Both the position numbers and the translations under genes were made by a program. From sequence record PZ027503.1: a stretch of DNA of 64,000 nt; one strand, 5' to 3'. The DNA comes from a phage. Each line of letters opens with the position of its first letter. Positions within the stretch are counted from its first letter, which is position 1. Shown here piece by piece: positions 6,239 to 31,059 of this stretch. Below the pieces are notes generated by a model, which saw nothing but the letters and a program-made list of their open reading frames with translations, was not told the DNA's origin and did no database searches.

Positions 6239-6434
6239 TTCTACCTCCTTCGATGCTTTGTGCCGTACCATCCCAAGCCATTAGAATATTTGCCAATAGT
6301 TCACGAGGCTCTTTAAACCAAACTTCCATTTCATCAAGAATCTCGTCCGTGTCGTAAGTATAACCTGGAACACCAAGTTCGCATTTCTTAAGATAGCTTT
6401 CTAACCAGCGGTGATAATTCTTAACCCCATTCAT
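6231..6434 (-). CDS. hypothetical protein (67 aa)
   Basis: ORF track. Confidence 0.5.
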   Translation of the reverse strand: MNGVKNYHRWLESYLKKCELGVPGYTYDTDEILDEMEVWFKEPRELLANILMAWDGTAQSIEGGRNE

Positions 6435-6759
6435 ACTGTGCTACCTTTTCTTTTACCCAATCTACACGATCTTTATCATAATGTTGAGTGCCAAGGAAAA
6501 GACCATTGTGGAAACTTTCCTCACCGAAAGGATAAATCGGATCTAAACCATCTTCTTCAAATAACATTTTTAGTCTCTGTGATGTAGATTTCTTAGTTTC
6601 TGAGTTGTAGTTTGTGGTTATAAGCCAATCTTCCAAACAACGACACAAACCTTGACGAGAATCCCAAGGAAAAACGCAATCTCCGACAGGAGCTTGTTCA
6701 GCCCATTTCAACCAGCCTTTAAAAAAGTTATACAGTATGTAGTCTTCAGTGTAATACAT
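6421..6759 (-). CDS. paralog family A member (GLC ... RVDWVKEK motif)
   Basis: ORF track frame; start at internal ATG with AAGGAGG RBS; shared motifs with 6 other ORFs. Confidence 0.6.
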   Translation of the reverse strand: MYYTEDYILYNFFKGWLKWAEQAPVGDCVFPWDSRQGLCRCLEDWLITTNYNSETKKSTSQRLKMLFEEDGLDPIYPFGEESFHNGLFLGTQHYDKDRVDWVKEKVAQYEWG

Positions 6760-6810
6760 TAGCGCCTCCTTTACGTATACAATAACACCCCGAAGAACGG
6801 GGTGCAACTG

Positions 6811-7426: not shown

Positions 7427-7702
7427 TCACCCCCAAGAAATATTTATATATCTTACAATGTTTGCACTGTCTAAAGCCATGTTTGCACCACACCCACGCT
7501 CGCGCCAGTAACTAACAATACCTTCGCAGATACTTTCTTGTATCTTCTTATCACTTGGCATTTCTAGTATAAGACTTGGGTTGTGGATGTTTATGTTATA
7601 ATATCCTTCCTCTGCGGCTTGAGCTACCAACTTACTTACTTTTTCAAAGTACGGGGAATTAGTAGCATCTGCCATTGTTTTTAAGGTTTGTCTATCCATC
7701 AT
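7427..7702 (-). CDS. hypothetical protein (91 aa)
   Basis: ORF track. Confidence 0.55.
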   Translation of the reverse strand: MMDRQTLKTMADATNSPYFEKVSKLVAQAAEEGYYNINIHNPSLILEMPSDKKIQESICEGIVSYWRERGCGANMALDSANIVRYINISWG

Positions 7703-8064
7703 TCTACCTCATCATAGAAGAAATCCAACTCTTGTTCCAGTTGTTTAACTCGATCCTTAACCCACTGTACACGTTTTTCATTAAACATACAACGTTTTTC
7801 CTTACACTCTTGCTCAAAAGATTTTGCTGTGTTAAATGGGAAAGTTGTATCTAAGCCAGCGTTTTCAAAACTGGCTAATTGCATACCATAAACAGAATAT
7901 GCTAAAGAATGCTCTGCCCGAAATTCATCACTTATATACATACGCAGACCTCGGCATAAGCCAACATCAGCGTAACCACTTTCTCTTGGAAAGAGACGGA
8001 GGTGTTCTAACCAATTATTATAGAAATCTAAAAGAATCCTCTTACACTTCAAATCAATTGTCAT
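7699..8064 (-). CDS. paralog family A member (GLC ... RVQWVKDR motif)
   Basis: ORF track frame; start at internal ATG with GAAGGAG RBS. Confidence 0.6.
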   Translation of the reverse strand: MTIDLKCKRILLDFYNNWLEHLRLFPRESGYADVGLCRGLRMYISDEFRAEHSLAYSVYGMQLASFENAGLDTTFPFNTAKSFEQECKEKRCMFNEKRVQWVKDRVKQLEQELDFFYDEVE

Positions 8065-8464
8065 AAAAAGTTTCTCCTTCATCAAACAAGTTGGCAAGAT
8101 TGTTCATGGCAATCTGGGTGGAAAGAAGACAACTGTTTGCAGACACATAAGCACGAGCTATTTTGTAAACATAGACTTTCGTATTACAATTGTCTAGGAT
8201 CGGAAGGCTTTCGTCGATAGCATCTATAACACTAAACATCACATCTAAAACTTTAATGGTGAGTGTTGTATTTGTATCTTCGTAACCTTTTTCAATCAGA
8301 CCTGAATAGAAGGTATAGTCCTCAACAGTTCGTCGTTTAAATTGGCGCATAAAATCGGAACCATCTGTAGCAGAATTGAACAAATTTTCAAAAAATACGT
8401 CCCATCCGGCAAAAAGGGCTGACAGCATGATTAAGTGATCTACAGATTCATTTTCTTGTTTCAT
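8054..8464 (-). CDS. hypothetical protein (136 aa)
   Basis: ORF track. Confidence 0.55.
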   Translation of the reverse strand: MKQENESVDHLIMLSALFAGWDVFFENLFNSATDGSDFMRQFKRRTVEDYTFYSGLIEKGYEDTNTTLTIKVLDVMFSVIDAIDESLPILDNCNTKVYVYKIARAYVSANSCLLSTQIAMNNLANLFDEGETFYDN

Positions 8465-8472
8465 ATCCTCTC

Positions 8473-9144
8473 CTATTTAATGTTAAGTCTGGCACACAAA
8501 CGAGAAACAGTTTTAGCATCCCATTTACCACCACGTGCTGTTGCTATTTTCTTACTGTTGAATTTTTCAGCAATAGTTTTGTAAGGTGTATTTAAATCTC
8601 TAAGGATCTCCAAACGTTCACGGAATGTCTCTGCAAAAGCATCTGCTTTAACAGAGTTGTATTCCATTTTTCCTTTTCTACGCGCAGCGGCAGTTTTAGG
8701 ATTAGCACTGCCTAATAAAACACCTTTGCTTTTTGCTACAGCAAGACCCTTTTTAATACGATCAGCAATACCTCTAACCTCTTGTTCAGCCAGAACAGAC
8801 AGAAGCTGTATAACCATTTTATCTGCATCTGGCATAATGGCTATCTTAACATCAATCATTTCTAGAAGAGTTGCTACGGAGGCGTTGTTACGACCCAAGC
8901 GGTCAACTTTAGCTACCAATAAAGTTGCTCCGGTAGCTTTACACATTTCAACCGCTTTAACCAGTTCCTTACGTTGCTTCCAATCGCCCTTACCCGAATA
9001 GTATTCAGAAAATTGACCAATAACTTCCGCATCAGGCACAGAGTCTAAGAAGTAACGGATATCGTTCTCTTGGCTCTCCATACCATATTGTGCCTCGCCT
9101 TTTTTCTGTTTAGAAAGACGACTGTAAACAACAAACTTTTTCAT
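8473..9144 (-). CDS. serine recombinase (resolvase/invertase family)
   Basis: VYSRLSKQ catalytic-Ser motif, VAKVDRLGRN motif, C-terminal HTH-like segment; AGGAG RBS; sigma70-like promoter upstream. Confidence 0.75.
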   Translation of the reverse strand: MKKFVVYSRLSKQKKGEAQYGMESQENDIRYFLDSVPDAEVIGQFSEYYSGKGDWKQRKELVKAVEMCKATGATLLVAKVDRLGRNNASVATLLEMIDVKIAIMPDADKMVIQLLSVLAEQEVRGIADRIKKGLAVAKSKGVLLGSANPKTAAARRKGKMEYNSVKADAFAETFRERLEILRDLNTPYKTIAEKFNSKKIATARGGKWDAKTVSRLCARLNIK

Positions 9145-9214
9145 AACCACTCCTAAACCATTGCTGTATTCTCACTTTACAAAATGAATAAACACTTGTC
9201 AAGGTATTTATTAT

Positions 9215-10581: not shown

Positions 10582-10908
10582 TCAACCAATTATTTCTTCT
10601 GCTACACGTTCTTTTACCCAGTTCACACGATCCACATTCAAATGACAACGGCCTTTTTCCGCTTCTAAGGTGTACTTTCCAAAATTACTGTTGAAAGGCA
10701 ACACCATAACCAAACCTTTGAGGTAGAACTGCTCATGCATTTCATCCAGTACAGGTTCGTATCGTTCGCTTTCTCCTATGTCGTAAAAATCATAGAGGTT
10801 CGTGCACAAACCTGTGCAACGGGTGAACGGTTCACCTTCAGGAGCACCAGCTTCCAACCATGCCAAATACGTGCGGTAAAATGTTAATAGCTCTTCGCTC
10901 ATTTCCAC
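10582..10908 (-). CDS. paralog family A member
   Basis: ORF track; FYRTYLAWL, GLC, VDRVNWVKERV motifs. Confidence 0.6.
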   Translation of the reverse strand: MEMSEELLTFYRTYLAWLEAGAPEGEPFTRCTGLCTNLYDFYDIGESERYEPVLDEMHEQFYLKGLVMVLPFNSNFGKYTLEAEKGRCHLNVDRVNWVKERVAEEIIG

Positions 10909-11113: not shown

Positions 11114-11341
11114 TTATTCCTCCATCTCAAACCATTCAGGGAACACTTTATGGAAGACACGGGTTGTTTCCAAAAGGAATTCCAATTCTTTTTCCAGATC
11201 TGCGTTCCAATCGTGCACTTTAACATTGATTGCCAATGCACTTGCACGGCGACTCAATTCTTGACAGATTGGATCACGCAGAACTATTGAGTCATAAAAC
11301 TGACAAACAGCCTCAAGTTCATACCAGTTATAATCCGACAT
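11114..11341 (-). CDS. hypothetical protein (75 aa)
   Basis: ORF track. Confidence 0.5.
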   Translation of the reverse strand: MSDYNWYELEAVCQFYDSIVLRDPICQELSRRASALAINVKVHDWNADLEKELEFLLETTRVFHKVFPEWFEMEE

Positions 11342-11667
11342 TATTCATCCTCCTCTGCAATACGATCTCTTACCCAATTAATCCTGTCCACGTTCAGGTG
11401 ACATACCTCTGCATCTGATTCTAAGACATATGCATCGTAGTTCTCATTGAAAGGGAGTTCTTGACTCAACCCTTTGTGGTAAAACTGTGAGTGCATTTCA
11501 TCTGACAAGGTTGTTATAAGAGGATTGTAGCCATCCGCGTGCACATAGTCGAATAAGTTGGCACACAAACCGCAATCCCGCCGAAAAGGTTTACCATCAG
11601 GAGCACCAACATCAATCCACGCTAGATAAATTTTATAAAACTCCATCAACCTTGCACTTGTTTTCAT
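11341..11667 (-). CDS. paralog family A member
   Basis: ORF track; FYKIYLAWI, GLC, VDRINWVRDRI motifs; GAGGTGG RBS. Confidence 0.6.
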   Translation of the reverse strand: MKTSARLMEFYKIYLAWIDVGAPDGKPFRRDCGLCANLFDYVHADGYNPLITTLSDEMHSQFYHKGLSQELPFNENYDAYVLESDAEVCHLNVDRINWVRDRIAEEDE

Positions 11668-14391: not shown

Positions 14392-14592
14392 TTATTTATC
14401 TTGCTTGTATCTTACAAGGCGATCACACTCTAGGTCAAGAAATTTCTCCGCATTTCGTTCATGTTTGAGCACAATACATTGTTCTTTCCAGTCTGTAGCT
14501 CTTTGCTGCGCTGCTCCTGGGTCAAAATCCCAAAGCCATGCCGCGAAAAGAACTACCATAACAATTACTAAGAAACTAAACACTATTGGCAT
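14392..14592 (-). CDS. small membrane protein (66 aa)
   Basis: ORF track frame; start at internal ATG with AGGAGG RBS; TM helix. Confidence 0.5.
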   Translation of the reverse strand: MPIVFSFLVIVMVVLFAAWLWDFDPGAAQQRATDWKEQCIVLKHERNAEKFLDLECDRLVRYKQDK

Positions 14593-14897
14593 TGCACATC
14601 CTCCTGTGTGGCATGGTCTTTTACCCATTTTATACGGGCAGCATTCAAATGCAATAGCCCGTTTCTTTGTGCAAAATCATATTTAAACCAGTCTCCGTCA
14701 TCAAACGGGTATTCTTCAGACAATCCTGCCTCACGGAATTGCATTTGCATTTCATAATTTAGATCATCATAACCTCCAGTCCAAAGGTAGAGGCAACTAC
14801 ATAATCCTTTATCATGCCAGAAAGGATTATTATCTGGAGCACCAGCTAACAGCCAGTTATGATATGCTTGATAAAATTCTTTAAGTTCTTCTGACAT
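14583..14897 (-). CDS. paralog family A member
   Basis: ORF track; FYQAYHNWL, GLC, ARIKWVKDH motifs. Confidence 0.6.
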   Translation of the reverse strand: MSEELKEFYQAYHNWLLAGAPDNNPFWHDKGLCSCLYLWTGGYDDLNYEMQMQFREAGLSEEYPFDDGDWFKYDFAQRNGLLHLNAARIKWVKDHATQEDVQCQ

Positions 14898-19638: not shown

Positions 19639-20022
19639 TTATTCAATGCAAGCATTATTTGCATCTTCAATGCGATCTTTCACCCATTGAAGACGTAACG
19701 TGTTGGTATGACACGCCAAGTTTATACACTCTGAAAGGTAATCCATGCAATCTGCATTGAACGGAAGATTGTAGTCCAGCCCTGCACATGTAAATTGTTT
19801 CCTCATTTCATATTTCAAACGGTCTAACAAACTATCCCGCCATCTTCTATCTTCTTCTCTAGTTGTCTCACCAACAAAATCATCTACATAATCTACCAGA
19901 CAACCACATAAGCCACTCGTTGTGCGATTCATTGCAGGATAGTTGGCAATCCATGCTTTATAGAAGCGAAGCAATGTTGCACTACTCAACGGAATATTAT
20001 TTGTCATTTTTCTCTCCTTCAT
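19639..20022 (-). CDS. paralog family A member
   Basis: ORF track; FYKAWI, GLC, RLQWVKDRI motifs. Confidence 0.55.
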   Translation of the reverse strand: MKERKMTNNIPLSSATLLRFYKAWIANYPAMNRTTSGLCGCLVDYVDDFVGETTREEDRRWRDSLLDRLKYEMRKQFTCAGLDYNLPFNADCMDYLSECINLACHTNTLRLQWVKDRIEDANNACIE

Positions 20023-20341
20023 AATCCTGAATTCTATCTAACACCCATTGTATACGATGTTTGTTTTTATGGCAAATATGTTTTTTATGTTCGAAGGTGT
20101 ATTCTTCATAACCACCTTCATTAAACGGGAAATTGTAATCTAGTCCTGCACTAATAAACTGTGATTTCATCTCCTGTTGTAGACGAGGTAACAGTTCATC
20201 AGGGTATGTTCCCTCTACATACTTAATCAAACATATGCACAAACCACTCGTTGTGTGACCTTCTACCTCACCAGTAAGCCAAGCTTTGTAAAACTTCATT
20301 AGACGTAAGCTACTCAACGGAACATTTCTACTCTCTTGCAT
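19997..20341 (-). CDS. paralog family A member
   Basis: ORF track; FYKAWL, GLC, RIQWVLDRI motifs. Confidence 0.55.
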   Translation of the reverse strand: MQESRNVPLSSLRLMKFYKAWLTGEVEGHTTSGLCICLIKYVEGTYPDELLPRLQQEMKSQFISAGLDYNFPFNEGGYEEYTFEHKKHICHKNKHRIQWVLDRIQDYEGEKNDK

Positions 20342-20680
20342 GATAATCTCCTCTCATTCTTAGCCATCTTTCATGGCAATCATCAATCACCAACATCATA
20401 CGATCAATCTTAGGGAATTACAATCGAATTATCATAGGGGATTCCTATCAATTATCCCATATATACCGATTATTTTTGACACCCCACTCTTGTATAAAAA
20501 GTAACCCAAAATATCTACGGGGAGAGATTATTTCGGGACACCCTGTTTCATGGCAATCATGGCAAGAATATCTAATAGAATCAATATGATATGGCAAAAA
20601 TCATGGCGCATACGTAAGAAGTGCTTAACGCGAACTTTCGGGCCGTCAGGTCCACGCAGCGACAATTCCCAAATATCATG

Positions 20681-20703
20681 CGAATGAGAATAATTATCAT
20701 TCG
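20681..20703. promoter_or_regulatory. operator-like palindrome CGAATGA-N9-TCATTCG
   Basis: inverted repeat seen in sequence; related motifs at 20863, 33553, 33625. Confidence 0.4.
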
Positions 20704-21117
20704 TATTCAATGACTTATGCAAGGCTCATGCCAACATAGCGACAAGGTGGGCCACTTGATTATAAATCACACAAACACTTATTTATCAATAGGTTGGCAA
20801 CTTCATCATATGACGGAACAATGTCAACTAATCCCGCTCATAACAGACAGACTATTATTTATATGAGAATGATTATTATTTAAACGTTTATTAACATAAA
20901 ACCAGAATAAATCAAGAATTTTCTGATTTTATTTACGTTTAAGAGAAGATGCTCAACATCCTACCGGATCGCCGTTGGCAATCCTGCGGATATTTACGCC
21001 CCCATGATTAAGGTTTATCTCTTTTCTTAGTGCTCAACATTCCCGCCCGTGGCGGTAACATTTCGCCCCCAAAATTATTGACTTTTATTCTATTATGTGC
21101 ATAGTGTGCAATGTATC

Positions 21118-21136
21118 GGAATGATGATAATCATCC
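21118..21136. promoter_or_regulatory. Fur-box-like palindrome (AATGATGATAATCATC)
   Basis: close match to TGATAATCATT core of enterobacterial Fur boxes. Confidence 0.35.
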
Positions 21137-21928
21137 TCCCATTGCCCCCAATAATTATTGCCATGCTAATGATCTCATATTGTAATTATTACAATGATTA
21201 TTGTTATTGCGCTAATGTTATGATCTTGGTAATTACATATAATGCTAATAATAAGCCAGCGCAATGAGTGTAAGCGTAATTACGCTTGCAATTATTGCAA
21301 GCTACGCAATAACAAGAAATAACCGTCACCGATGGTTATGATTGTTGGGGTGTAGTTGGCTTATTATTAGCTCGCTATGTGTCCGGCATAGCGTGCTAAT
21401 GATGATCCTGGGAATGATTCGTTTTGTAATGATTTCATTCAGTCACTATTATGGCAATAGTTATTATTTTAATGGTTTCGTTTGTTATTGTTCGTTAGTT
21501 GGTTGTTTTGTCGTGTTATCGTTATTTTGCTTAGTATTCATCATGGTTTGATTGTTTGTCGTTATCAATCATCTTGCTATTATTCCTTTGATTATGATTA
21601 GTTTGCTTATTGTTTTATGTTGTTTGTTGGTTAGTTGTTGCGAACTATTATCAACATTATAATTATGCGCTTATATTGCATAGATAATCATGGGTAGATG
21701 ATAATGGTTATCATTGCACTAGAAAGGAGGTAGAAGGGTGTTTTTGATGGTTTGTTGTTGGTTGTTGATCGATTTTAACCGCTATAAATGGCTCTCTAAC
21801 AGCCTGTTACCCTGGGAGGTATGGTTATTCGTTTAATGGTTGATTAGCTCGATACCGCGATTTATTCAATTTTGTTCTGTGTCGGTTTTTCATAGGCGAA
21901 AGCTATCAACATTGTTCGGGCAAAAAGA

Positions 21929-21949
21929 AAGGGCGCTTGGTGCGCCCTT
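21929..21949 (-). terminator. terminator at distal end of island
   Basis: AAGGGCGCTTGGTGCGCCCTT hairpin flanked by T-runs. Confidence 0.5.
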
Positions 21950-21962
21950 GTTTTGTTGTCAA

Positions 21963-22382
21963 TTATAACGCTTCATAGATTGAGTAGATCCGGTTTGCCA
22001 GGTCATTACGAAAGCGGAATTTTTCATCACGTTTGATCATCAGATCCTTAAAACCGCATTCTTTCAGTGCTTCATTAACTTTACTGCGGCATACTTTCAT
22101 ATTGTCCTGCGCGTCACCAATAAACTTGTTACTATGATGCATTGCTTTGATCTCTTCTTCCAGGACCAGGGCAACTACACGGATCGGATCAAGCTGATAC
22201 GCGGTAACATCCATGCGGCATTGTAAACGGCTTTTAACGTCTGCCACCGGATATACTGCAACCTCTTCCCCGTCAACGTTCACAATAACCAATTTACCAT
22301 CGATTTCGAAGCCTTTAGCGGCGCTACCGTGACAAAAAGCGTTGTCGAAGGAGTAAGCTGGATTATTTGATTTAATGTTCAT
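21963..22382 (-). CDS. hypothetical protein (139 aa)
   Basis: ORF track; promoter TTGACA inside hairpin at 22440-22470. Confidence 0.6.
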   Translation of the reverse strand: MNIKSNNPAYSFDNAFCHGSAAKGFEIDGKLVIVNVDGEEVAVYPVADVKSRLQCRMDVTAYQLDPIRVVALVLEEEIKAMHHSNKFIGDAQDNMKVCRSKVNEALKECGFKDLMIKRDEKFRFRNDLANRIYSIYEAL

Positions 22383-22891: not shown

Positions 22892-22906
22892 TTTATTTTC
22901 CTCTTT

Positions 22907-22969
22907 GTGGGCTTGCTGTATTGCTCGCCCTACGTGATAAATAATAATGTAAGCGTGATCCGGTGTCAA
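22907..22969 (-). promoter_or_regulatory. promoter plus degenerate 5' stem-loop cassette
   Basis: minus-strand TTGACA-N17-TATTAT then CCCTACGTGATA block. Confidence 0.45.
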
Positions 22970-23144
22970 TAGGTAGCATTGTAAAGATTTGATAGTTTAT
23001 TCCTTTGATGTTTTGTTGTTTGATAGATGTTAGCTATCAATATATGGCGGGGTCGTCCGGTGATTATCTTCCCCTGCTCCCAGGTGCCGCCCGTTCAATA
23101 AGTATAACAAAAAACAGGACAAAAACAAGCCCTGTTTATTTATC

Positions 23145-23264
23145 TTAAAACCAGTTGCCAACCGTTTCCAATAGGTCACTGACTACCAGGACAACATTGA
23201 TCAGCACATATTTAATCAGGAAGGGGATTAGCGCCAGCGCCGCTACTATGATCCCCATTGTCAT
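23145..23264 (-). CDS. membrane micro-protein (39 aa)
   Basis: hand-translated MTMGIIVAALALIPFLIKYVLINVVLVV...; GAGAAAGG RBS. Confidence 0.35.
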   Translation of the reverse strand: MTMGIIVAALALIPFLIKYVLINVVLVVSDLLETVGNWF

Positions 23265-23275
23265 GATTACCTTTC

Positions 23276-23566
23276 TCATTGTTGGCGGTTTACGTAAGCT
23301 TTACCGTTTACGGTCATCTGTATGGCTTCAAGGTCTGGATCTTCCTTAAGGTCGCGTGCAAGCTCACCGCAGCGGATACCCTCGAATCCGTAGTATTCTG
23401 TTTCCCCGTCCTTAAAAGTTTTAGCGGCAAGGCATAGGCGATAATTAACGCCGATCCGGTTTACCGCGTTGATATCGGTTAACGCGATGGATTCAGGCAA
23501 ATCATTAGCCATTACAGGCGCGTTAATACCAACAACCAGGGCAACTACTGCGATCATCTTTTTCAT
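23276..23566 (-). CDS. secreted protein with signal peptide (96 aa)
   Basis: ORF track; MKKMIAVVALVVGINAPVMA; hairpin 23597-23612 upstream. Confidence 0.6.
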   Translation of the reverse strand: MKKMIAVVALVVGINAPVMANDLPESIALTDINAVNRIGVNYRLCLAAKTFKDGETEYYGFEGIRCGELARDLKEDPDLEAIQMTVNGKAYVNRQQ

Positions 23567-23621
23567 GCTTTCTAGCCTCTTCCTATTGCGTTTAATGGGG
23601 CGTTACCGCCCCGCTTATGGT

Positions 23622-23858
23622 TTATTGATTGATGTTATAATGAAAATTATTTTCTTCAATAGCTTTTAAAATAAAAGCCGTGATCGCTTTCGTGTCTACT
23701 TGTTCGAACGTATCGGAATAGCACCAATAATGATCATCCCCTACTTTCGGCGGGTAAACCTGGACAAGGAGATCGCCACCTGGTTGATCTATAAGCTCAA
23801 CATGTAAGCCGGATGATTCAGCGGTTTTAACGGCGTTTAATACTGTTGCAATACTCAT
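23622..23858 (-). CDS. hypothetical protein (78 aa)
   Basis: ORF track; hairpin 23879-23894 upstream of RBS. Confidence 0.55.
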   Translation of the reverse strand: MSIATVLNAVKTAESSGLHVELIDQPGGDLLVQVYPPKVGDDHYWCYSDTFEQVDTKAITAFILKAIEENNFHYNINQ

Positions 23859-23902
23859 AATCTTTTCCTTTCTGATGTGGGGCGTTGCCGCCCCTTTGTT
23901 GA

Positions 23903-24202
23903 TTAGATCGCTGTTTCCAGTAGTTCGGCTAACGTCTTACCGCCTGATAGTTGGTCTAACGTTTGCTCTTCTGGCAAGAAATTAGCTGATATTAATCCGA
24001 CTTGATTCCCTTTGTGCCAATTGGCTTGACGGATGATTCCATCCTTTAAAGATTTTACCGCCATTGTGCAACCGTCGCCAAATGATTCATTTTTATGATC
24101 CATTACTTCATAAGCGCCCAGCTTGCTGCTGTTAGGCACCATCAACGCGAATACATCACCAACAACCAGTTTTTCTACGGTAACAATAGCGATAGTTTCC
24201 AT
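23903..24202 (-). CDS. hypothetical protein (99 aa)
   Basis: ORF track. Confidence 0.55.
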   Translation of the reverse strand: METIAIVTVEKLVVGDVFALMVPNSSKLGAYEVMDHKNESFGDGCTMAVKSLKDGIIRQANWHKGNQVGLISANFLPEEQTLDQLSGGKTLAELLETAI

Positions 24203-24219
24203 TTTACTTTCCTCATTAT

Positions 24220-24278
24220 CGGCGGCACCATTGCCGCCCTACGCATTAAATATAAGTTATCTAAGAGATTAGATCAAG
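24220..24278 (-). promoter_or_regulatory. promoter plus 5' stem-loop cassette
   Basis: hairpin GGCGGCACCATTGCCGCC 24221-24238; minus-strand TTGATC-N17-TATATT. Confidence 0.55.
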
Positions 24279-24280
24279 GA

Positions 24281-24472
24281 TTATTTTGTAAAGATTACAG
24301 CTTCATCAAAATTTTCAACATAGTAAGCAAGCTCCTCATTTGCTGCAACCATTCCTAAAAGTTGGCTATAAGATAAACCTTTGATCCCTTCCTCGTTGTT
24401 TAATGCTTCGATGATTTCATCAACGGGCGCAAAAAACATGTTATTCGATTCCAGGTAGGAGATGGTTTTCAT
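24281..24472 (-). CDS. hypothetical protein (63 aa)
   Basis: ORF track. Confidence 0.5.
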   Translation of the reverse strand: MKTISYLESNNMFFAPVDEIIEALNNEEGIKGLSYSQLLGMVAANEELAYYVENFDEAVIFTK

Positions 24473-24492
24473 AATGTTTACCTTTTTCGGGG

Positions 24493-24549
24493 AGCGGCAC
24501 CATTGCCGCCCTACGTGGTAAATATTAGCACACTGGCGATCTGTGTCAA
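24493..24549 (-). promoter_or_regulatory. promoter plus 5' stem-loop cassette
   Basis: hairpin GCGGCACCATTGCCGC 24494-24509; TTGACA-N16-TAATAT on minus strand. Confidence 0.6.
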
Positions 24550-24555
24550 TACTTT

Positions 24556-24942
24556 TTATTCAATATAAATCAAATTATCTTCACCAATGTAAGCCGACAC
24601 GTTCGGCATAAACTTAGCTGCATTGGTTAGGCGGTTCGCCGTGTTAGTGGTGTATATTTCAGGGCGATCCCAAAAGCCTACGCCGTGACTGTTACGGGTA
24701 AAATGTAAATCATTCCCGATCTGGTTGGCTGTTGCGCCGTCGCTCATTGCCTCAGAGATAGCGGCAAGATTAGCATTAATAAAGGCTGTTACATCCTGGG
24801 CGATCCGTTGATCCGCACTAGGAGAAAAATCATAATCGTCTAAGTTATCAATAAAATTACCTTCATAATCCCTTGCTGATTCAGCAAAAATAAAGGCTTC
24901 TTTATAGCCGTTGATGATTTCAATAATGATTTCTGTTTTCAT
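24556..24942 (-). CDS. hypothetical protein (128 aa)
   Basis: ORF track. Confidence 0.55.
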   Translation of the reverse strand: MKTEIIIEIINGYKEAFIFAESARDYEGNFIDNLDDYDFSPSADQRIAQDVTAFINANLAAISEAMSDGATANQIGNDLHFTRNSHGVGFWDRPEIYTTNTANRLTNAAKFMPNVSAYIGEDNLIYIE

Positions 24943-25154
24943 GCTGTACGCTCGACAATAATAATAGTTTGCGGGATCTCGTTTTCTACTACTAACAAGG
25001 CTTTTTTCTGTGTGATAGATATTTTAACACGTTGTAAAGTAGCGGTAAAATCTTTCATTTCATTATGCGCGGATTTAGTACAATGCCAGATCTCAGGTTT
25101 ACCAACTTGCAAGCCGCGTAAAAATTCCGTTTTACCTGTCTTATTCGTGATCAT
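24939..25154 (-). CDS. hypothetical protein (71 aa)
   Basis: ORF track frame; start at ATG 25154 with AAGGTG RBS. Confidence 0.5.
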   Translation of the reverse strand: MITNKTGKTEFLRGLQVGKPEIWHCTKSAHNEMKDFTATLQRVKISITQKKALLVVENEIPQTIIIVERTA

Positions 25155-25164
25155 TTGTTTCACC

Positions 25165-25269
25165 TTAACCGATACCGTGGGAAGATAGGATCATATTAGC
25201 CATAGTTGCAACTACTCCAACCGATAACGCCAGGCCAACCACTGCAACCGTGAAAATTTTCTCTAACAT
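25165..25269 (-). CDS. membrane micro-protein (34 aa)
   Basis: hand-translated MLEKIFTVAVVGLALSVGVVATMANMILSSHGIG; follows cassette. Confidence 0.35.
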   Translation of the reverse strand: MLEKIFTVAVVGLALSVGVVATMANMILSSHGIG

Positions 25270-25286
25270 GATTCTACCCTCATTAA

Positions 25287-25349
25287 TGGGCGTTGCACCA
25301 TTGCCCCGCCCTACGTAATACACTTTACCAGATAACAAACCATTGTCAA
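25287..25349 (-). promoter_or_regulatory. promoter plus 5' stem-loop cassette (variant)
   Basis: hairpin 25288-25311; TTGACA at 25343-25349 (minus). Confidence 0.5.
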
Positions 25350-25407
25350 GGTTTATTTACTACATCTTTTAAGCTGTATTTTTAAAATACAGCTTTCAGG
25401 CTGTCAA

Positions 25408-25578
25408 TTACTCTTCATCGTCGCCGTTATAGTATTCAATGCCGTTTTCATCGGTTACGGTGATGTTAACGCCACCGATAGCAACACGATCACGGGCAAA
25501 CGTCATAGCTTCGTTTAAATCTTCAGACCAAAAAATATTGTGACCTTTGCGCGATACATAAAACATAGTTGGGATCAT
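25408..25578 (-). CDS. hypothetical protein (56 aa)
   Basis: ORF track frame; start at internal ATG after cassette and AGAAGAGAAA RBS. Confidence 0.5.
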   Translation of the reverse strand: MIPTMFYVSRKGHNIFWSEDLNEAMTFARDRVAIGGVNITVTDENGIEYYNGDDEE

Positions 25579-25600
25579 GATTTGTTTCTCTTCTGTTGTG

Positions 25601-25662
25601 AGCGGTGGACCATTCCGCCGCTCTATGTAATAAACTTTACTACGTTGTTTGCCTACTGTCAA
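25601..25662 (-). promoter_or_regulatory. promoter plus 5' stem-loop cassette
   Basis: hairpin GCGGTGGACCATTCCGCCGC; TTGACA 25657-25662 (minus). Confidence 0.55.
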
Positions 25663-25663
25663 A

Positions 25664-25948
25664 TTATTTTTTAATGTTTTGCCCTACAAAATTGATCACT
25701 TCCTTAAGCTGTCTCTCTGTCATGATCGTACCTGGTAACTCTTCTTTAATTTCTTCCGGTAAATAAATATTACCGCGCCAGGTTAACAAACAACCGTTTT
25801 GATCTTCGCAGATAGAATAAGAAAACATCCACTCGCAATCATTCTCAAGCTCCCAAAAACACAAAAAGTCTTCTTTCCCTAAGTTTTCAACGGTTAAACA
25901 TAATCCGCGACGTGCTGCATAATTAGTTAGGCTTTTTGTGATTTTCAT
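25664..25948 (-). CDS. hypothetical protein (94 aa)
   Basis: ORF track frame; start at internal ATG downstream of hairpin. Confidence 0.55.
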   Translation of the reverse strand: MKITKSLTNYAARRGLCLTVENLGKEDFLCFWELENDCEWMFSYSICEDQNGCLLTWRGNIYLPEEIKEELPGTIMTERQLKEVINFVGQNIKK

Positions 25949-25970
25949 GATTTTTCTCTCTTCTGTTGTG

Positions 25971-26027
25971 AGCGGCACCATTGCCGCCCTACAAGATACA
26001 TATTATCAGACTACGCGGACTTGTCAA
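25971..26027 (-). promoter_or_regulatory. promoter plus 5' stem-loop cassette
   Basis: hairpin GCGGCACCATTGCCGC 25972-25987; TTGACA 26021-26027 (minus). Confidence 0.6.
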
Positions 26028-26028
26028 A

Positions 26029-26139
26029 CTATTTTTTCTTTTTCTTTGCTTCCAACCGTCTAAGGTTACGGCTTGACTTATTGCGCAAGGCGCTTAGATC
26101 GTCGTACCCTTTCCATGCTTGCATATCTTTCGGATTCAT
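26029..26139 (-). CDS. small basic protein (36 aa)
   Basis: ORF track frame; start at internal ATG with GGGGGATAAC RBS; K-rich C-terminus. Confidence 0.35.
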   Translation of the reverse strand: MNPKDMQAWKGYDDLSALRNKSSRNLRRLEAKKKKK

Positions 26140-26149
26140 GTTATCCCCC

Positions 26150-26428
26150 TTAACGATTATAAACATTATGGATGGCTTCAAAGGCAAGATGACCATAAGC
26201 CGCCAAATCGGGATTGATCCAAGCGTTATCCAACATCGTTTCAAGGACTGTGGAATCATCGTATAAAGCATCATAGAAATCTGCACGGATGATCGTTTCA
26301 ATGTCGTCCGGTGTTAGTTTGTCGTTCAACTTGCACACTGTTTCAACGTCAACACCAATTTTCCAATTTTGTAAATTAGTGGTTAACATTGTTTTCATTT
26401 CTTCGGTTGTTAATTTAACGATGGTCAT
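26150..26428 (-). CDS. hypothetical protein (92 aa)
   Basis: ORF track; cassette upstream. Confidence 0.55.
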   Translation of the reverse strand: MTIVKLTTEEMKTMLTTNLQNWKIGVDVETVCKLNDKLTPDDIETIIRADFYDALYDDSTVLETMLDNAWINPDLAAYGHLAFEAIHNVYNR

Positions 26429-26451
26429 GATTTTTTCTCTCTTCTGTTAGG

Positions 26452-26507
26452 CGGGGCGCTTGTCGCCCCTATGTGATACATCTTATCAGGTTGATTCAGC
26501 TTGTCAA
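26452..26507 (-). promoter_or_regulatory. promoter plus 5' stem-loop cassette
   Basis: hairpin GGGGCGCTTGTCGCCCC; TTGACA-N16-TAAGAT (minus). Confidence 0.6.
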
Positions 26508-26508
26508 A

Positions 26509-26670
26509 CTATTTGTTAGCCGGATTATATGCCAGGACCGCGCCGCTTGCTTTCACGCTTTCCGCTTCATAGTTGCGCAGATCGTTTTCTGTAAGATTGA
26601 GCGCGATCACTTCCTCAATCTCAACACCAGCGGCAATGGCGATCTCTTTGATAATGTCTGCTGTTTTCAT
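26509..26670 (-). CDS. hypothetical protein (53 aa)
   Basis: ORF track frame; start at internal ATG (MKTADIIKEI). Confidence 0.5.
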   Translation of the reverse strand: MKTADIIKEIAIAAGVEIEEVIALNLTENDLRNYEAESVKASGAVLAYNPANK

Positions 26671-26680
26671 GGTATGTACC

Positions 26681-26800
26681 TTATAAGATGATTGATAAGA
26701 TAGTGACAACGAAAGCGATTATACTGATGGCAAATGTCATCTTTTTACCTTCGGATACTGCCGGATTTTCTACCGTGTATTCTACTGTGTACTTGCTCAT
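26681..26800 (-). CDS. membrane-anchored micro-protein (39 aa)
   Basis: hand-translated MSKYTVEYTVENPAVSEGKKMTFAISIIAFVVTILSIIL. Confidence 0.35.
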   Translation of the reverse strand: MSKYTVEYTVENPAVSEGKKMTFAISIIAFVVTILSIIL

Positions 26801-26822
26801 CGTGTAATCCTCTCGTTTGCTT

Positions 26823-26880
26823 TGGGAACTATTCCCGCCGCCCTATGAATTAAATATACACTATCTCAAAATGATTGCAA
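26823..26880 (-). promoter_or_regulatory. promoter plus 5' stem-loop cassette (short stem)
   Basis: hairpin GGGAACTATTCCC; TTGCAA at 26875-26880 (minus). Confidence 0.5.
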
Positions 26881-26898
26881 GCCTTTTTCTAAATTATT

Positions 26899-27183
26899 TT
26901 ATGCAGTAAACAAACCATCATTTACAACGGCGGCGATGATCTCCCGTGCCATTGATTCAGGGAAAGGGGCGCTATAGTCCTGGCTTGTCTCATCGGTATC
27001 GGTGATCCAATGATAAGCTAACGAGTAAAAGCCTTTACTAACTGTTTTCAGTGAGATGATGATCACTCGGTCAAGCTTATTGGTGAATGTTGCCGTTAAT
27101 GTGTCACCCTCCTGCGTCATGTTGGACAAGTAAGCGGGATCATTAATCAGGGAAAACATTAGCACGGTGTTAGCTTTACTCAT
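26899..27183 (-). CDS. hypothetical protein (94 aa)
   Basis: ORF track frame; start at internal ATG with GAGGATG RBS. Confidence 0.55.
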   Translation of the reverse strand: MSKANTVLMFSLINDPAYLSNMTQEGDTLTATFTNKLDRVIIISLKTVSKGFYSLAYHWITDTDETSQDYSAPFPESMAREIIAAVVNDGLFTA

Positions 27184-27203
27184 GATTGCATCCTCAAAGG
27201 GGG

Positions 27204-27260
27204 CGCGGCACCATTGCCGCCCTACACGATAACTATAACACAATATAAAACAGGATCAAC
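27204..27260 (-). promoter_or_regulatory. promoter plus 5' stem-loop cassette
   Basis: hairpin GCGGCACCATTGCCGC 27205-27220; TTGATC-N16-TATAGT (minus). Confidence 0.55.
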
Positions 27261-27462
27261 CTTTATTTTTCCACGGTGTCAGCTTGTTAATCATTGGTGA
27301 TAAATAGCGTTTACCAACGTAAAACAGCACGCCAACTGATGCAACGGCGGCGACCTCATGCATAGCCGACGGGAAACGGGTATCATAATAAGATCCAATA
27401 ATAGCAATAGCGGCAACGGCTGCAACGTCGATAATGATTTTTTCTTGTTTTGCGGTGATCAT
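27256..27462 (-). CDS. small membrane protein (68 aa)
   Basis: ORF track; hydrophobic. Confidence 0.5.
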   Translation of the reverse strand: MITAKQEKIIIDVAAVAAIAIIGSYYDTRFPSAMHEVAAVASVGVLFYVGKRYLSPMINKLTPWKNKG

Positions 27463-27481
27463 AATATTTACCTTTTTGTAT

Positions 27482-27541
27482 GGTGGGGAACTATTCCCCG
27501 CCTGATGTAATACAGTTTAACAGGTCCGGTTATGGTGTCAA
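27482..27541 (-). promoter_or_regulatory. promoter plus 5' stem-loop cassette
   Basis: hairpin GGTGGGGAACTATTCCCCGCC; TTGACA 27536-27541 (minus). Confidence 0.55.
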
Positions 27542-27547
27542 CCACTT

Positions 27548-27733
27548 TTAAAGATATTTTATGTTAATGATGTTTTCAGGTTTTACCTTGTTATGATGTG
27601 CATCAACATAGATCAAACCATCGTCAGAAAAGCCCAGGATCACGCCCTGCGCAATAAAACCGTATTCGTCACGGTAACGCACGGCTATTTTTAATGTTGC
27701 GCTGTAGGCTGTTTTAAGCTCGTTTAAAGTCAT
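27548..27733 (-). CDS. hypothetical protein (61 aa)
   Basis: ORF track; GAGGAT RBS. Confidence 0.5.
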   Translation of the reverse strand: MTLNELKTAYSATLKIAVRYRDEYGFIAQGVILGFSDDGLIYVDAHHNKVKPENIINIKYL

Positions 27734-27753
27734 TTTTGTTTATCCTCTACATG

Positions 27754-27774
27754 TAAAAAGAAAGGGCGCTTGGT
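27754..27774 (-). terminator. intra-island terminator
   Basis: AAGGGCGCTTGGTGCGCCCTT hairpin followed by CTTTTTAC on minus strand. Confidence 0.45.
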
Positions 27775-27788
27775 GCGCCCTTGTTATG

Positions 27789-27935
27789 TTAATCCTCTAA
27801 ATCCATCCAATTATATTTGTCACTCTTCCCGCGCTTTGTTTTATTGCGCTTGTCGCCTTTGCGGATCACTTCCTCGTTCCAGGCCTTGCGGATCTTGGAA
27901 GATTGAATTTTTTCTGCGCGATTAGATGTATTCAT
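27789..27935 (-). CDS. small basic protein (48 aa)
   Basis: hand-translated MNTSNRAEKIQSSKIRKAWNEEVIRKGDKRNKTKRGKSDKYNWMDLED; AGAGGAAACA RBS. Confidence 0.4.
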   Translation of the reverse strand: MNTSNRAEKIQSSKIRKAWNEEVIRKGDKRNKTKRGKSDKYNWMDLED

Positions 27936-27954
27936 TTTGTTTCCTCTTTATATG

Positions 27955-28008
27955 AGCGGCACTATTGCCGCTATATTGTTAATTTAAACTGTTTTGTAAA
28001 ATTGTCAA
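27955..28008 (-). promoter_or_regulatory. promoter plus 5' stem-loop cassette
   Basis: hairpin GCGGCACTATTGCCGC 27956-27971; TTGACA 28002-28008 (minus). Confidence 0.55.
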
Positions 28009-28014
28009 GGTTTA

Positions 28015-28368
28015 TCATTCATAAGAGCAAGCAAGGATCACGCCTGCAATATAAAGCCAATAATTTTCCCTTTCTCGTTGGATTTTATCATCGCTGCTAT
28101 TCTCTTTAATGTATCCCCAGGATGTTAACAACCGATCTACTTCCCAATACTCGAAAGCTATATTAATATTTGACGGTAAACCTTGTAACCATGATGCTAT
28201 TGCTCTGATAATGTTATGATCGTAACGTTTTTGATTATCGGTGTACCAATATTCAGATTTAAAACAGCGCATCAATTCCGCGATCTTCTCTTTCTCTTCT
28301 GTGATGCCATACTCGCTATAATCAATTGAGGCCAGAATATAAAGTTTAATTGCATTTTGTGCTTTCAT
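28015..28368 (-). CDS. hypothetical protein (117 aa)
   Basis: ORF track. Confidence 0.55.
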   Translation of the reverse strand: MKAQNAIKLYILASIDYSEYGITEEKEKIAELMRCFKSEYWYTDNQKRYDHNIIRAIASWLQGLPSNINIAFEYWEVDRLLTSWGYIKENSSDDKIQRERENYWLYIAGVILACSYE

Positions 28369-28387
28369 GGTGTCTCTCTTCTGTTGT

Positions 28388-28445
28388 TGGCGGCACCATT
28401 GCCGCCCTATGTGTTACATCTTACCGGATTTTTAAAACTTGTCAA
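28388..28445 (-). promoter_or_regulatory. promoter plus 5' stem-loop cassette
   Basis: hairpin GGCGGCACCATTGCCGCC 28389-28406; TTGACA 28439-28445 (minus). Confidence 0.6.
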
Positions 28446-28667
28446 TCATTTTTCTACTATCATTTGATACCCTGTTTCCAGGTTAGTAAACACCGTGATC
28501 CCGTCCTGGCGTTCACTCATTAGCATACAAGGCGCTAACATCCTTTCTACTGCCTTGCACTCATTGTAAACGGCGGTTATGTCTCCTGCGGCCTTGTCTT
28601 CTGTGGTGAATGTATCGTTTACGTAAACCTGACCAGCGACAACGGCGACAATAGCGAAAGTGATCAT
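28446..28667 (-). CDS. hypothetical protein (73 aa)
   Basis: ORF track; MITFA N-terminus shared with next small ORF. Confidence 0.5.
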   Translation of the reverse strand: MITFAIVAVVAGQVYVNDTFTTEDKAAGDITAVYNECKAVERMLAPCMLMSERQDGITVFTNLETGYQMIVEK

Positions 28668-28700
28668 GGTGTTTCCTTGTTAGTAGTGGTTTCTCTTCTC

Positions 28701-28726
28701 TATAGCGCCCATTGTAAGGCGCTATA
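28701..28726 (-). promoter_or_regulatory. variant 5' stem-loop (TATAGCGCC/GGCGCTATA)
   Basis: inverted repeat immediately upstream of RBS of 28446-28667. Confidence 0.4.
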
Positions 28727-28734
28727 ACGAAAAG

Positions 28735-28908
28735 TCAACGATTATTTTTAAGGCTTAAAGTACCTAACTTGTCAGCATGACGCAGACCAGGGAAGATCCA
28801 TTTGCCTGATTCATCTTTTACAGGTGCTTTAAACGTAGCGCCCAGGTTGGCGGCGTTAATTTTACGGGCAACGTTGCGAGCGGCTTCACGGGTAGCGAAA
28901 GTGATCAT
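28735..28908 (-). CDS. small protein (57 aa)
   Basis: hand-translated MITFATREAARNVARKINAANLGATFKAPVKDESGKWIFPGL... Confidence 0.4.
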   Translation of the reverse strand: MITFATREAARNVARKINAANLGATFKAPVKDESGKWIFPGLRHADKLGTLSLKNNR

Positions 28909-28932
28909 GGTGTTTTCCTCTTCTCTTTGTTA

Positions 28933-28994
28933 GGCGGTGGACCATTCCGCCGCCTTGATGTAATACAGTTTACTTTATTTTTGCAGTATTGCAA
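28933..28994 (-). promoter_or_regulatory. promoter plus 5' stem-loop cassette
   Basis: hairpin GGCGGTGGACCATTCCGCCGCC; TTGCAA 28989-28994 (minus). Confidence 0.45.
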
Positions 28995-29000
28995 GCGGTT

Positions 29001-29213
29001 TTATGAAATAATCGTCAAAGTAAAATTGTAATCACCTGATTGATACAATACTTTATCACCGAACGTTCCAACACGTTTAACATTGCAATATATACCCATA
29101 ACACTTTTTACATCTTTGATATTCTTCACGCCTGTAATATCTTTATTAAAATGATCGTGATCAGAAAATAAAACTTGACTTGCATTTTTTAACAGTGTGC
29201 GGATATTAGCCAT
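29001..29213 (-). CDS. hypothetical protein (70 aa)
   Basis: ORF track. Confidence 0.5.
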   Translation of the reverse strand: MANIRTLLKNASQVLFSDHDHFNKDITGVKNIKDVKSVMGIYCNVKRVGTFGDKVLYQSGDYNFTLTIIS

Positions 29214-29237
29214 CGTAATAATCTCTCTTCTGTTGTG

Positions 29238-29294
29238 AGCGGCACCATTGCCGCCCTACGTAATATAGTTTACTCTTTTTCTTTCCCGTGTCAA
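29238..29294 (-). promoter_or_regulatory. promoter plus 5' stem-loop cassette
   Basis: hairpin GCGGCACCATTGCCGC 29239-29254; TTGACA 29289-29294 (minus). Confidence 0.6.
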
Positions 29295-29303
29295 CAATCT
29301 TTT

Positions 29304-29531
29304 TCAGATTAATTCATCCAGGCATAACAGGCGATCAACGTTGAGATCGGTTAGGCTGATGGTTGGCACCTGGTAGGATTCGATGTACTCGACGCTTGCA
29401 TATTCCCCAAAATTAGCAATAGCCCACTTATTCAAGATCTCACATACATCATTAATCTTTTTGTTTGTTACGACTGCAATAACCTGGGAAGTGCCAACGG
29501 TGCCGGATACGCGAACAATATTGATAGCCAT
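29304..29531 (-). CDS. hypothetical protein (75 aa)
   Basis: ORF track. Confidence 0.5.
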   Translation of the reverse strand: MAINIVRVSGTVGTSQVIAVVTNKKINDVCEILNKWAIANFGEYASVEYIESYQVPTISLTDLNVDRLLCLDELI

Positions 29532-29551
29532 AATCTTTAATCTCTCTGTTT

Positions 29552-29612
29552 TGGCGGGAAACCACTTCCCGCCCTATGTGATACATCTTACACTAATTTT
29601 AAACGTTGTCAA
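29552..29612 (-). promoter_or_regulatory. promoter plus 5' stem-loop cassette
   Basis: hairpin GGCGGGAAACCACTTCCCGCC; TTGACA-N-TAAGAT (minus). Confidence 0.6.
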
Positions 29613-29621
29613 CTGTTTTTA

Positions 29622-29861
29622 TTACATTCCAACCATCGCGGCACGGATCGCAGTAGTGCTATATTTGAAACCGTCTGGCGTTTTATCTTGTCCAGTTTGT
29701 TCCAGAAAAAGCATCATATCCCGCGCCGCATCATTACGATTAGCATTAGCGTTAATAAAATCTTGGGCCAACCGGTATAACGATTCATCGTTATTAATCC
29801 AAAGGCTTACATTCCAATGAGTTTTGTTTTTGTGACCGTTGTACATTTTAGATTTAGCCAT
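29622..29861 (-). CDS. hypothetical protein (79 aa)
   Basis: ORF track. Confidence 0.5.
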   Translation of the reverse strand: MAKSKMYNGHKNKTHWNVSLWINNDESLYRLAQDFINANANRNDAARDMMLFLEQTGQDKTPDGFKYSTTAIRAAMVGM

Positions 29862-29884
29862 GATTTTTCTCTCTTTTTCAGTGA

Positions 29885-29944
29885 GGCGGGAAGTGTTCCC
29901 GCTCTCTATGTAATACAGTTTACTCTTTTTATTCGTGCTGTCAA
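29885..29944 (-). promoter_or_regulatory. promoter plus 5' stem-loop cassette
   Basis: hairpin GCGGGAAGTGTTCCCGC 29886-29902; TTGACA 29939-29944 (minus). Confidence 0.55.
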
Positions 29945-29950
29945 TGCTTT

Positions 29951-30316: not shown

Positions 30317-30341
30317 GATGATAATCTCTCTTTTTGGTTAG

Positions 30342-30394
30342 TGGGAAGTATTCCCGATAAAAGTTATTATGCTTATACTATCACTCATTGTCAA
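30342..30394 (-). promoter_or_regulatory. promoter plus 5' stem-loop cassette (short stem)
   Basis: hairpin GGGAAGTATTCCC; TTGACA 30389-30394 (minus). Confidence 0.5.
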
Positions 30395-30413
30395 TAGTAT
30401 AAGACTAAAACTT

Positions 30414-30593: not shown

Positions 30594-30612
30594 GATGTTA
30601 ACCTTTTATTGT

Positions 30613-30670: not shown

Positions 30671-30676
30671 CCGTTT

Positions 30677-31039: not shown

Positions 31040-31059
31040 TGTGTTACCCTTTTTTGTTT

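Follow-up and report, generated by a model that had tools for sequence, protein, structure and literature searches.

Several families of site-specific recombinases are relevant to the gene described here. Resolvases such as those of Tn3 and gamma-delta, Sin and beta join a catalytic domain to the long E-helix, which in serine recombinases provides both oligomerisation and DNA contacts; autoregulation is common among them. The invertases of the Gin/Hin/Cin/Pin group, of which Gin belongs to phage Mu and Cin to P1, are of the same size class and act on an invertible segment between inverted crossover sites. The large serine recombinases (e.g., Bxb1, TP901-1, PhiC31, and SPbeta SprA) typically exceed 400 aa and continue into a recombinase domain, a zinc ribbon and a coiled coil, the parts that give serine integrases their discrimination between att sites and their directionality. 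In the IS607-type transposases the DNA-binding domain is N-terminal. Cre of phage P1 is a tyrosine recombinase that acts at one site per genome, cyclises terminally redundant DNA and resolves dimers; P1 itself is temperate and is maintained as a plasmid.

The recombinase we investigated is encoded in a 64-kb window, the whole stretch of DNA analysed, from a Phapecoctavirus (phAPEC8-like, Stephanstirmvirinae), a virulent E. coli myovirus of about 150 kb. The nearest record is phage anhysbys, with 99% identity, and the window is collinear throughout with the reverse strand of ETEC-TG, a relative whose complete genome we put together from five loci. According to the ORF list and the sequence, the reading frame lies on the minus strand, starts with ATG at 9144, ends with TAG at 8475-8473, and encodes 223 aa. 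An alternative GTG start at 9150 would add two residues; the homologues begin with MKKF. The features of the locus are as follows.

8473..9144, minus strand: serine recombinase coding sequence, 223 aa plus stop (Pfam Resolvase, PHROG 125, identical protein in 63 records)
8830..9144, minus strand: catalytic domain, residues 1-105, nucleophile S11 with R9, Q25, R58, D81, R82 and R85
8707..8829, minus strand: long E-helix, residues ~106-146, predicted helix 109-139, aligning with Tn3, gamma-delta and Gin
8476..8706, minus strand: C-terminal DNA-binding domain of five helices, residues 147-223, like the first sub-domain of the 'Recombinase' domain
9152..9156, minus strand: ribosome-binding site AGGAG, 7 nt 5' of the ATG, read from the sequence
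9174..9202, minus strand: promoter-like site of the sigma70 type, TTGACA, 17-nt spacer, TAAAGT, 10 of 12 consensus positions
9187..9212, no strand assigned: imperfect palindrome of 26 bp, AATAAACACTTGTCAAGGTATTTATT, covering the -35 hexamer, a weak candidate operator or binding site

The gene is already known and annotated in databases, and its presence is nothing out of the ordinary, leaving one modest question open. GenBank names identical proteins variously as DNA invertase, resolvase, serine recombinase or hypothetical protein; many GenBank and RefSeq records instead carry 'methionine ABC transporter ATP-binding protein' or 'putative ABC transporter ATP-binding protein', a label that is a propagated misannotation. 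One report guesses at a 'resolvase for concatemers' and gives no data (PMC10282059), and two others overlooked the gene and stated that such phages have no recombinase (PMC5374246, PMC10269720). We found no functional study of this gene in the literature.

Residues 5-142 of the protein match the Pfam Resolvase profile (PF00239; E=5.2e-18, 66 bits against a cut-off of 23.3), as do 54 of 54 relatives, and the protein matches PHROG 125 ('DNA invertase') with E=2.6e-32. By sequence, the closest solved structures are the Tn3 and gamma-delta resolvases. Y7, R9, S11, Q25, R58, D81, R82 and R85 are invariant in a 30-member alignment that extends to ~29% identity, and the same set is invariant among 54 members. 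The counterparts in gamma-delta resolvase, whose sequence was part of the smaller alignment, are Y6, R8, S10, Q19, R45, D67, R68 and R71; the DRLGR block and the E-helix were confirmed by HMMER alignments to deposited PDB sequences. The initial annotation had called the protein a small serine recombinase on the basis of two motifs, and both are present: YSRLSKQ contains Y7, R9 and S11, which align with Y6/R8/S10 of gamma-delta/Tn3, and DRLGRN contains D81, R82 and R85, which align with D67/R68/R71. A dead catalytic serine had been named as a refutation, and this fails, the serine being invariant on alignment. Given that all catalytic residues are invariant, the enzyme is predicted to be catalytically competent.

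An AlphaFold2 model computed from the family alignment (mean pLDDT 88) shows a mixed alpha/beta catalytic domain, the E-helix, and five helices at residues 149-219. In Foldseek searches the catalytic domain matches Sin, gamma-delta and TP901-1; the whole chain aligns only with the large serine recombinases Bxb1 and SPbeta, a result that the family profile repeats. When that profile is compared to solved structures the best match is Gin, for the catalytic domain only. PF07508 ('Recombinase') matches residues 187-216 at profile positions 19-48 of 102, which is below its cut-off for this protein; the profile is matched by 25 of the 54 family members, a 'recombinase-like HTH' family by two, and HTH_7, the Hin/resolvase type, by none. 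The helical C-terminal tail proposed earlier is thus present, albeit not as a helix-turn-helix of the Hin/resolvase type. The nucleophile and the conserved glutamine are spaced as in large recombinases. No curated NCBIfam subfamily model scored near its cut-off (the Mpi invertase model reached 22.6 bits against 272), and none of the PADLOC defence-system models matched. Judged from these comparisons, the protein is a small serine recombinase that has, as its DNA-binding domain, the first sub-domain of the region with which large recombinases bind DNA, and it belongs to an uncharacterised clade of 'short, large-recombinase-like' proteins common to plasmids, prophages and large virulent phages.

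The same gene encodes phi92 gp053 (57% identity) and the identical or near-identical proteins of phAPEC8, ESCO13 and ETEC-TG. With the resolvases of Tn3/gamma-delta, Sin and beta the protein shares the catalytic domain, the catalytic residues and the E-helix; the gene also shares an own promoter with a dyad and, in the reading proposed below, co-linear recombination at one site per replicon. Unlike in these enzymes, the DNA-binding domain is of another fold family, and, unlike in Tn3/gamma-delta, the serine and the conserved glutamine are separated by a longer N-terminal loop, which large serine recombinases also have. A three-subsite res region of the Tn3 type would hardly fit into the intergenic DNA, which is only 70 bp long, and there is no transposon. 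The gene is not linked to a transposase or plasmid replicon; its neighbours are small phage ORFs. The large serine recombinases have the same N-terminal motif spacing, S-x4-Q...G-x-S/G-L-x-x-Q, and the C-terminal domain here has its homologue in the first part of their recombinase domain; however, at 223 aa the protein is without most of the recombinase domain and without zinc ribbon and coiled coil. Whereas IS607-type transposases have an N-terminal DNA-binding domain and occur in several or variably inserted copies, the domain is C-terminal here, and the genus has the gene once, always at one locus. In the defining features that were tested, the recombinase does not qualify as a Hin/Gin invertase, a Tn3-type resolvase, a large serine integrase or an IS607 transposase. 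Cre/loxP is a functional analogue and not a homologue; it serves as a model for the proposed role, and no lox-like site was found here.

The label 'DNA invertase' of PHROG 125 and of several GenBank records, the match of the family profile to Gin (in the catalytic domain only), and a homologue that adjoins a baseplate-domain gene in one prophage could be taken to mean that the enzyme flips a tail-fibre or promoter segment, as Gin and Cin do. We consider this very unlikely, as it is largely refuted in silico. The enzyme is phage-borne and has the catalytic domain of the Gin/Hin/Cin/Pin group, but it is without HTH_7, scores far below the invertase family cut-offs, and is accompanied by neither inverted crossover sites nor an invertible segment nor isoforms. 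No inverted pair stands out in the 64-kb window or, within 4 kb, in the window and 86 kb of ETEC-TG, where the inverted repeats seen are short with 70-85% identity. A search of the complete relative genome for palindromes with 12-bp arms, followed by comparison of half-sites, revealed no recurring palindromic half-sites; the scan returned terminators, AT-rich chance pairs and a record-end duplicate. Two candidate pairs, one of 20 nt around the promoter (9114-9133/9252-9271) and one of 38 nt around the gene (7444-7481/9580-9617), were rejected: both lie in coding sequence and are in the 74-80% match range, which is chance level.

The comparison of genomes points in the same direction. Among the matches listed (~64 Phapecoctavirus genomes), the 25-kb baseplate/tail-fibre region shows no inversion isoforms and occupies one same-strand place per genome; the gaps correspond to replacements of receptor-binding modules, and the one record listed with two places has a match that stops at the record's last base. 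A tail-fibre inversion switch was rejected on these grounds, i.e., the 25 kb are collinear and differ by module replacements. The 4 kb around the recombinase are found in a single place in 76 of 76 matching records, with no isoform. In the genome-wide tiling, early-region and replication tiles were only sampled and gave many extra places, some of which are matches cut by record ends and others possibly repeated sequence. The inversion switch, one of the two roles that had been suggested for the gene, finds no support in convincing inverted sites, isoforms or a DNA-binding domain of the Hin/Gin type. The finding in silico that the genome contains no paired sites, which had been named as a refutation, is not decisive: the ~329-bp terminal repeat is reduced to one copy in assemblies, and for a system of the resolvase type a single site on each genome copy is enough.

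Small ORFs that form a co-directional array, transcribed away from the left genome end, surround the gene, which is located 11.8 kb inward of the left direct terminal repeat. The initial annotation had proposed an own sigma70-like promoter and placed it at about 9185; the promoter is present at 9202-9174, ~15 bp away, and recurs in other lineages. A consensus promoter scan alone is not significant, with 27 sites against 21.3 +/- 4.5 in shuffled sequences. The promoter is supported instead by the recurrence of an equivalent site upstream of the homologues in five other phage lineages, namely phi92, FKP3, DRC-type ICP1, phiWec186 and KP13-16, such that a TTGACA-type promoter precedes the recombinase homologue in every lineage examined (six including the window). 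In KP13-16 a terminator stands immediately before this promoter. No conserved partner gene was found: the small ORF downstream varies among lineages, and the neighbours match only PHROGs of unknown function. With promoter, ribosome-binding site and gene, the recombinase behaves as a self-contained, autonomous cassette. Of the early-gene array described previously, the co-directional array of small ORFs is observed, and early expression is something we infer from the promoter type alone. The recombinase promoter is not of the class represented by sixteen copies of a conserved early promoter unit on the minus strand at 22900-32600. This unit, which has 17 matches against 0.8 expected, consists of TTGACA, a 17-nt spacer, and TAAGAT/TAAACT, followed by TATCACATAGGGCGG; at least two copies have a G+C-rich inverted repeat after the motif. 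The units recall the promoter-stem-loop repeats that are a feature of T4-type hyperplastic regions.

The dyad over the -35 hexamer has 11-bp arms, a 4-bp spacer and 2 mismatches, and is the only one in the 70 bp of adjacent intergenic DNA. Palindromes of this quality occur about once per 360 bp, which is chance level. No second copy exists at six or fewer mismatches in the window or the complete relative genome; the half-site AATAAAYAC occurs once more in the 64-kb window, at 53934, and is not clustered; and phiWec186 retains only the left arm. As a repeated crossover site the dyad was therefore rejected, being unique and half lost in phiWec186, and we keep it as a weak operator candidate. Its overlap with the recombinase's own -35 hexamer would suit a DNA-binding regulator that no longer catalyses recombination. 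We find this scarcely credible, as no family member deviates at the nucleophile or at any catalytic Arg or Asp residue, a constancy that would not be expected if only binding mattered.

A hint as to the function comes from small plasmids. Full-length homologues with 35-40% identity over 95-99% coverage are encoded on 110 plasmids, many of them 5.8-7 kb in size with replication and partition genes, a long non-coding stretch 5' of the recombinase, and little else. Examples are Klebsiella plasmids of 5.8-6.5 kb, the Marinovum plasmid pMaD11 (5.8 kb, with RepA and ParA), and a Synechococcus plasmid of 6.4 kb. Dyads are located directly 5' of the recombinase in the Klebsiella and Synechococcus plasmids; no dyad stood out upstream of the gene in pMaD11. 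In plasmid biology, a recombinase on a small replicon is the setting of multimer resolution at one site per replicon. This context suggests that the plasmid homologues probably resolve multimers, and of the two roles suggested in the initial annotation the resolution of replication intermediates is the likelier one.

By analogy with these small-plasmid relatives, and considering the presence of one cassette per genome, we tentatively propose, with somewhat less than even confidence, that the phage enzyme works in the way of a resolvase, with each genome copy providing one cognate site. The cassette would be transcribed by host RNA polymerase without the help of phage factors, and a dimer would bind the site on each copy. 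Two sites would then synapse as a tetramer, all four strands would be cut through phosphoserine links to Ser11, one half would rotate by 180 degrees, and the ends would be religated. The partner could be the same site in head-to-tail arrangement within replicating concatemers or circular multimers, or the site on a co-infecting genome, and the products would be monomer circles or exchanged arms. Inversion of a segment is disfavoured as an outcome because inverted sites and isoforms are absent. Both the substrate and the benefit to the phage are what we infer from this analogy, and several observations speak against it. The only dyad beside the gene is at chance level and half lost in phiWec186; a virulent phage whose DNA is packaged from concatemers has no evident reason to reduce them to monomers; the copy in one isolate record, Schickermooser, is disrupted; and the different loci in Phapecoctavirus and Justusliebigvirus, together with the accessory status of the gene in ICP1, fit a dispensable passenger as well.

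Practically every Phapecoctavirus record contains the recombinase, which the sister genus has as well. Homologues have 74% identity in phiWec186-like phages, 57% in Justusliebigvirus (including phi92 gp053), 51-55% in Klebsiella relatives, 35-38% in Vibrio and Shewanella myoviruses of ~130 kb, and 30% in the DRC lineage of ICP1. Phi92 and FKP3 carry the gene within the block for replication and nucleotide metabolism, with a methyltransferase and two small ORFs on one side and a HisRS-like, NinI and DprA group on the other. In Phapecoctavirus this block is intact without the recombinase, and the gene is found in the left arm after the homologue of phi92 gp013. The divergence of the recombinase between the two genera (57%) nevertheless resembles that of flanking orthologues (59-85%). 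In ICP1 the homologue is accessory and resides in lineage-specific DNA; 10.6 kb of novel sequence harbours it in the DRC lineage (PMC9707599).

This distribution could be explained by a selfish or passenger cassette of plasmid or prophage origin that persists and occasionally relocates without benefit to the phage, its activity serving its own movement. The change of locus between sister genera at ordinary divergence, the own promoter wherever the gene is found, the patchy presence in ICP1, and the relatives on plasmids and in prophages all agree with such an origin. So does the copy in Schickermooser (MK373788.1, 11286-11955), which has seven small deletions (1, 1, 7, 1, 2, 3 and 4 nt) in the first 300 bp of the gene and is intact beyond; this disrupted copy is either a natural knock-out or a local sequence error. 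However, more than 60 isolates all have the gene once, in the same position, no terminal repeats or target duplications flank it, and its domain order is unlike that of the IS607-type serine transposases. The substitutions, too, argue against a passenger. The protein is 100% identical in 63 public phage records; the gene differs from that of ETEC-TG by 6 synonymous and 0 non-synonymous substitutions and from that of WPEC2 by 16 synonymous and 0 non-synonymous ones, and the comparison with phiWec186 gives a dN/dS of 0.16-0.2. These values indicate that the gene is under strong purifying selection in the phage, and a passenger without benefit is, in our estimation, unlikely.

The comparison with phiWec186-type proteins also reveals that the divergence is unevenly distributed: in comparison with the window protein, the catalytic domain is 94% and the E-helix 98% identical, whereas identity is only 36% for the C-terminal domain, the fastest-diverging part across the family. 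Because the remainder of the protein is so similar, this contrast indicates that the DNA-binding module was exchanged in the phiWec186-type lineage. A binding domain that evolves much faster than the catalytic one, and was swapped wholesale in one lineage, might be tracking targets outside the phage genome (host chromosome, prophage, satellite, plasmid or competing phage), with the enzyme serving as an early tool of conflict or takeover. A host-type promoter would permit expression straight after entry, no cognate site was found in the phage genome, and the homologue is accessory in ICP1, inside novel DNA of the DRC lineage; ICP1 is known for arms races that involve recombinases (PMC9707599; PMC9638900). 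On the other hand, no candidate target emerged, known defence-system models do not match, and the protein is 100% conserved in Phapecoctavirus isolated on very different hosts, where a fast arms race predicts otherwise. We therefore regard a target in non-phage DNA as an improbable explanation. Its more specific version, a conflict recombinase of virulent phages that is made at once and whose binding domain is exchanged between phages to retarget it to host, prophage, satellite, plasmid or co-infecting DNA, is more improbable still; if true, it would mean that strictly virulent phages use a site-specific recombinase in conflicts between genomes.

The resolvase-like action on concatemers or multimers that we prefer has to be weighed against one further possibility, which involves the ends of the genome. 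Members of the Stephanstirmvirinae have short direct terminal repeats, of 328 bp in Schickermooser (PMC6563267) and 342 bp in BME3 (PMC12210895); in phi92 the repeat is annotated at 1-343. The Schickermooser repeat maps to a single copy of ~329 bp at 20626-20953 of the window, and the physical genome ends therefore lie inside the window. A recombinase site in both copies of the repeat would allow the incoming linear genome to be circularised in the manner of Cre/loxP. The second site would be hidden in assemblies that collapse the repeat, the repeat holds dyads conserved between the two genera, and a host-type promoter suits a function needed right after entry. Yet no motif in the repeat is linked to the recombinase, the conserved dyads are reminiscent of Fur boxes and of terminase or end-recognition sequences, lineages with strongly different DNA-binding domains share a conserved repeat, and the gene is 11.8 kb (window) or 19.5 kb (phi92) from the end. 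Circularisation through the repeat consequently appears doubtful in the extreme, if not quite as implausible as an invertase.

The terminal repeat is part of a non-coding, repeat-rich stretch of ~1.7 kb (20400-22000). The motif GTTRAGCAYCTTCT is found in similar form where the repeat starts and shortly after it ends; it is conserved in phi92 and may be an end-cutting signal. A 17-bp palindrome, ATGAGAATnATTATCAT, which we take to resemble the E. coli Fur box, has 20 matches against 1.9 expected. Two copies are inside the terminal repeat and conserved in phi92, and four others follow each other at an exact 29-bp spacing, like iterons or a Fur-regulated region. Copies noted include the following.

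20684-20700: palindrome copy
20863-20879: palindrome copy
21124-21140: palindrome copy
21698-21714: palindrome copy
33563, 33592, 33621 and 33650: array of four palindrome copies

When candidate phages for therapy are screened, a recombinase gene is flagged because it may point to lysogeny, and phages of the phAPEC8 type are in therapeutic use or proposed for it. The gene described here is a genuine, selected and active-looking recombinase without the domains that make serine integrases. Integration receives no support, because a search of 5,426 complete E. coli genomes with the recombinase gene region gave no match, the PLSDB plasmids contain no close (high-identity) match to the phage recombinase, and integrase domains are absent. 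The role of site-specific recombinases in strictly virulent phages is a small open question, for which experiments could start from the promoter belonging to the gene, its different loci in the two genera, and the exchanged DNA-binding domain.

Further homologues are found in prophages. The prophage with homologue P0071 also has a separate large serine integrase and contains three palindromic elements (1587-1620, 2021-2049 and 2905-2938 of its locus) of the form CTGAAATA...TATTTCAG, i.e., CGTCTGAAATA-N6-TATTTCAGAYGG; they are situated in a small-gene region ~5-6 kb from the recombinase and are probably operators.

Some public records of this phage genus call for caution. Phage records named for Campylobacter, Acinetobacter, Klebsiella and Pseudomonas are 97-99% identical to this E. 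coli phage genus, and these host labels may be unreliable or the cultures contaminated. The WPEC2 record (PV691511.1) is rearranged at 100001-150000, where the equivalent of window 58.3-61.5 kb is inverted inside the right-arm early region. This record is without the terminal-repeat region, and four WPEC records are 5-10 kb larger than their relatives; the WPEC2 rearrangement may be a mis-assembly.

Seven small ORFs of one paralogous family (PHROG 2510), homologous to phi92 gp006 and gp010, are also scattered over the left arm to either side of the recombinase; several of them share a C-terminal motif resembling LPFN...C.LN.DRVNWVKERV.

6421-6807, minus strand: PHROG 2510 paralogue
7699-8097, minus strand: PHROG 2510 paralogue
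10582-10908, minus strand: PHROG 2510 paralogue
11341-11667, minus strand: PHROG 2510 paralogue
14583-14897, minus strand: PHROG 2510 paralogue
19639-20022, minus strand: PHROG 2510 paralogue
19997-20341, minus strand: PHROG 2510 paralogue
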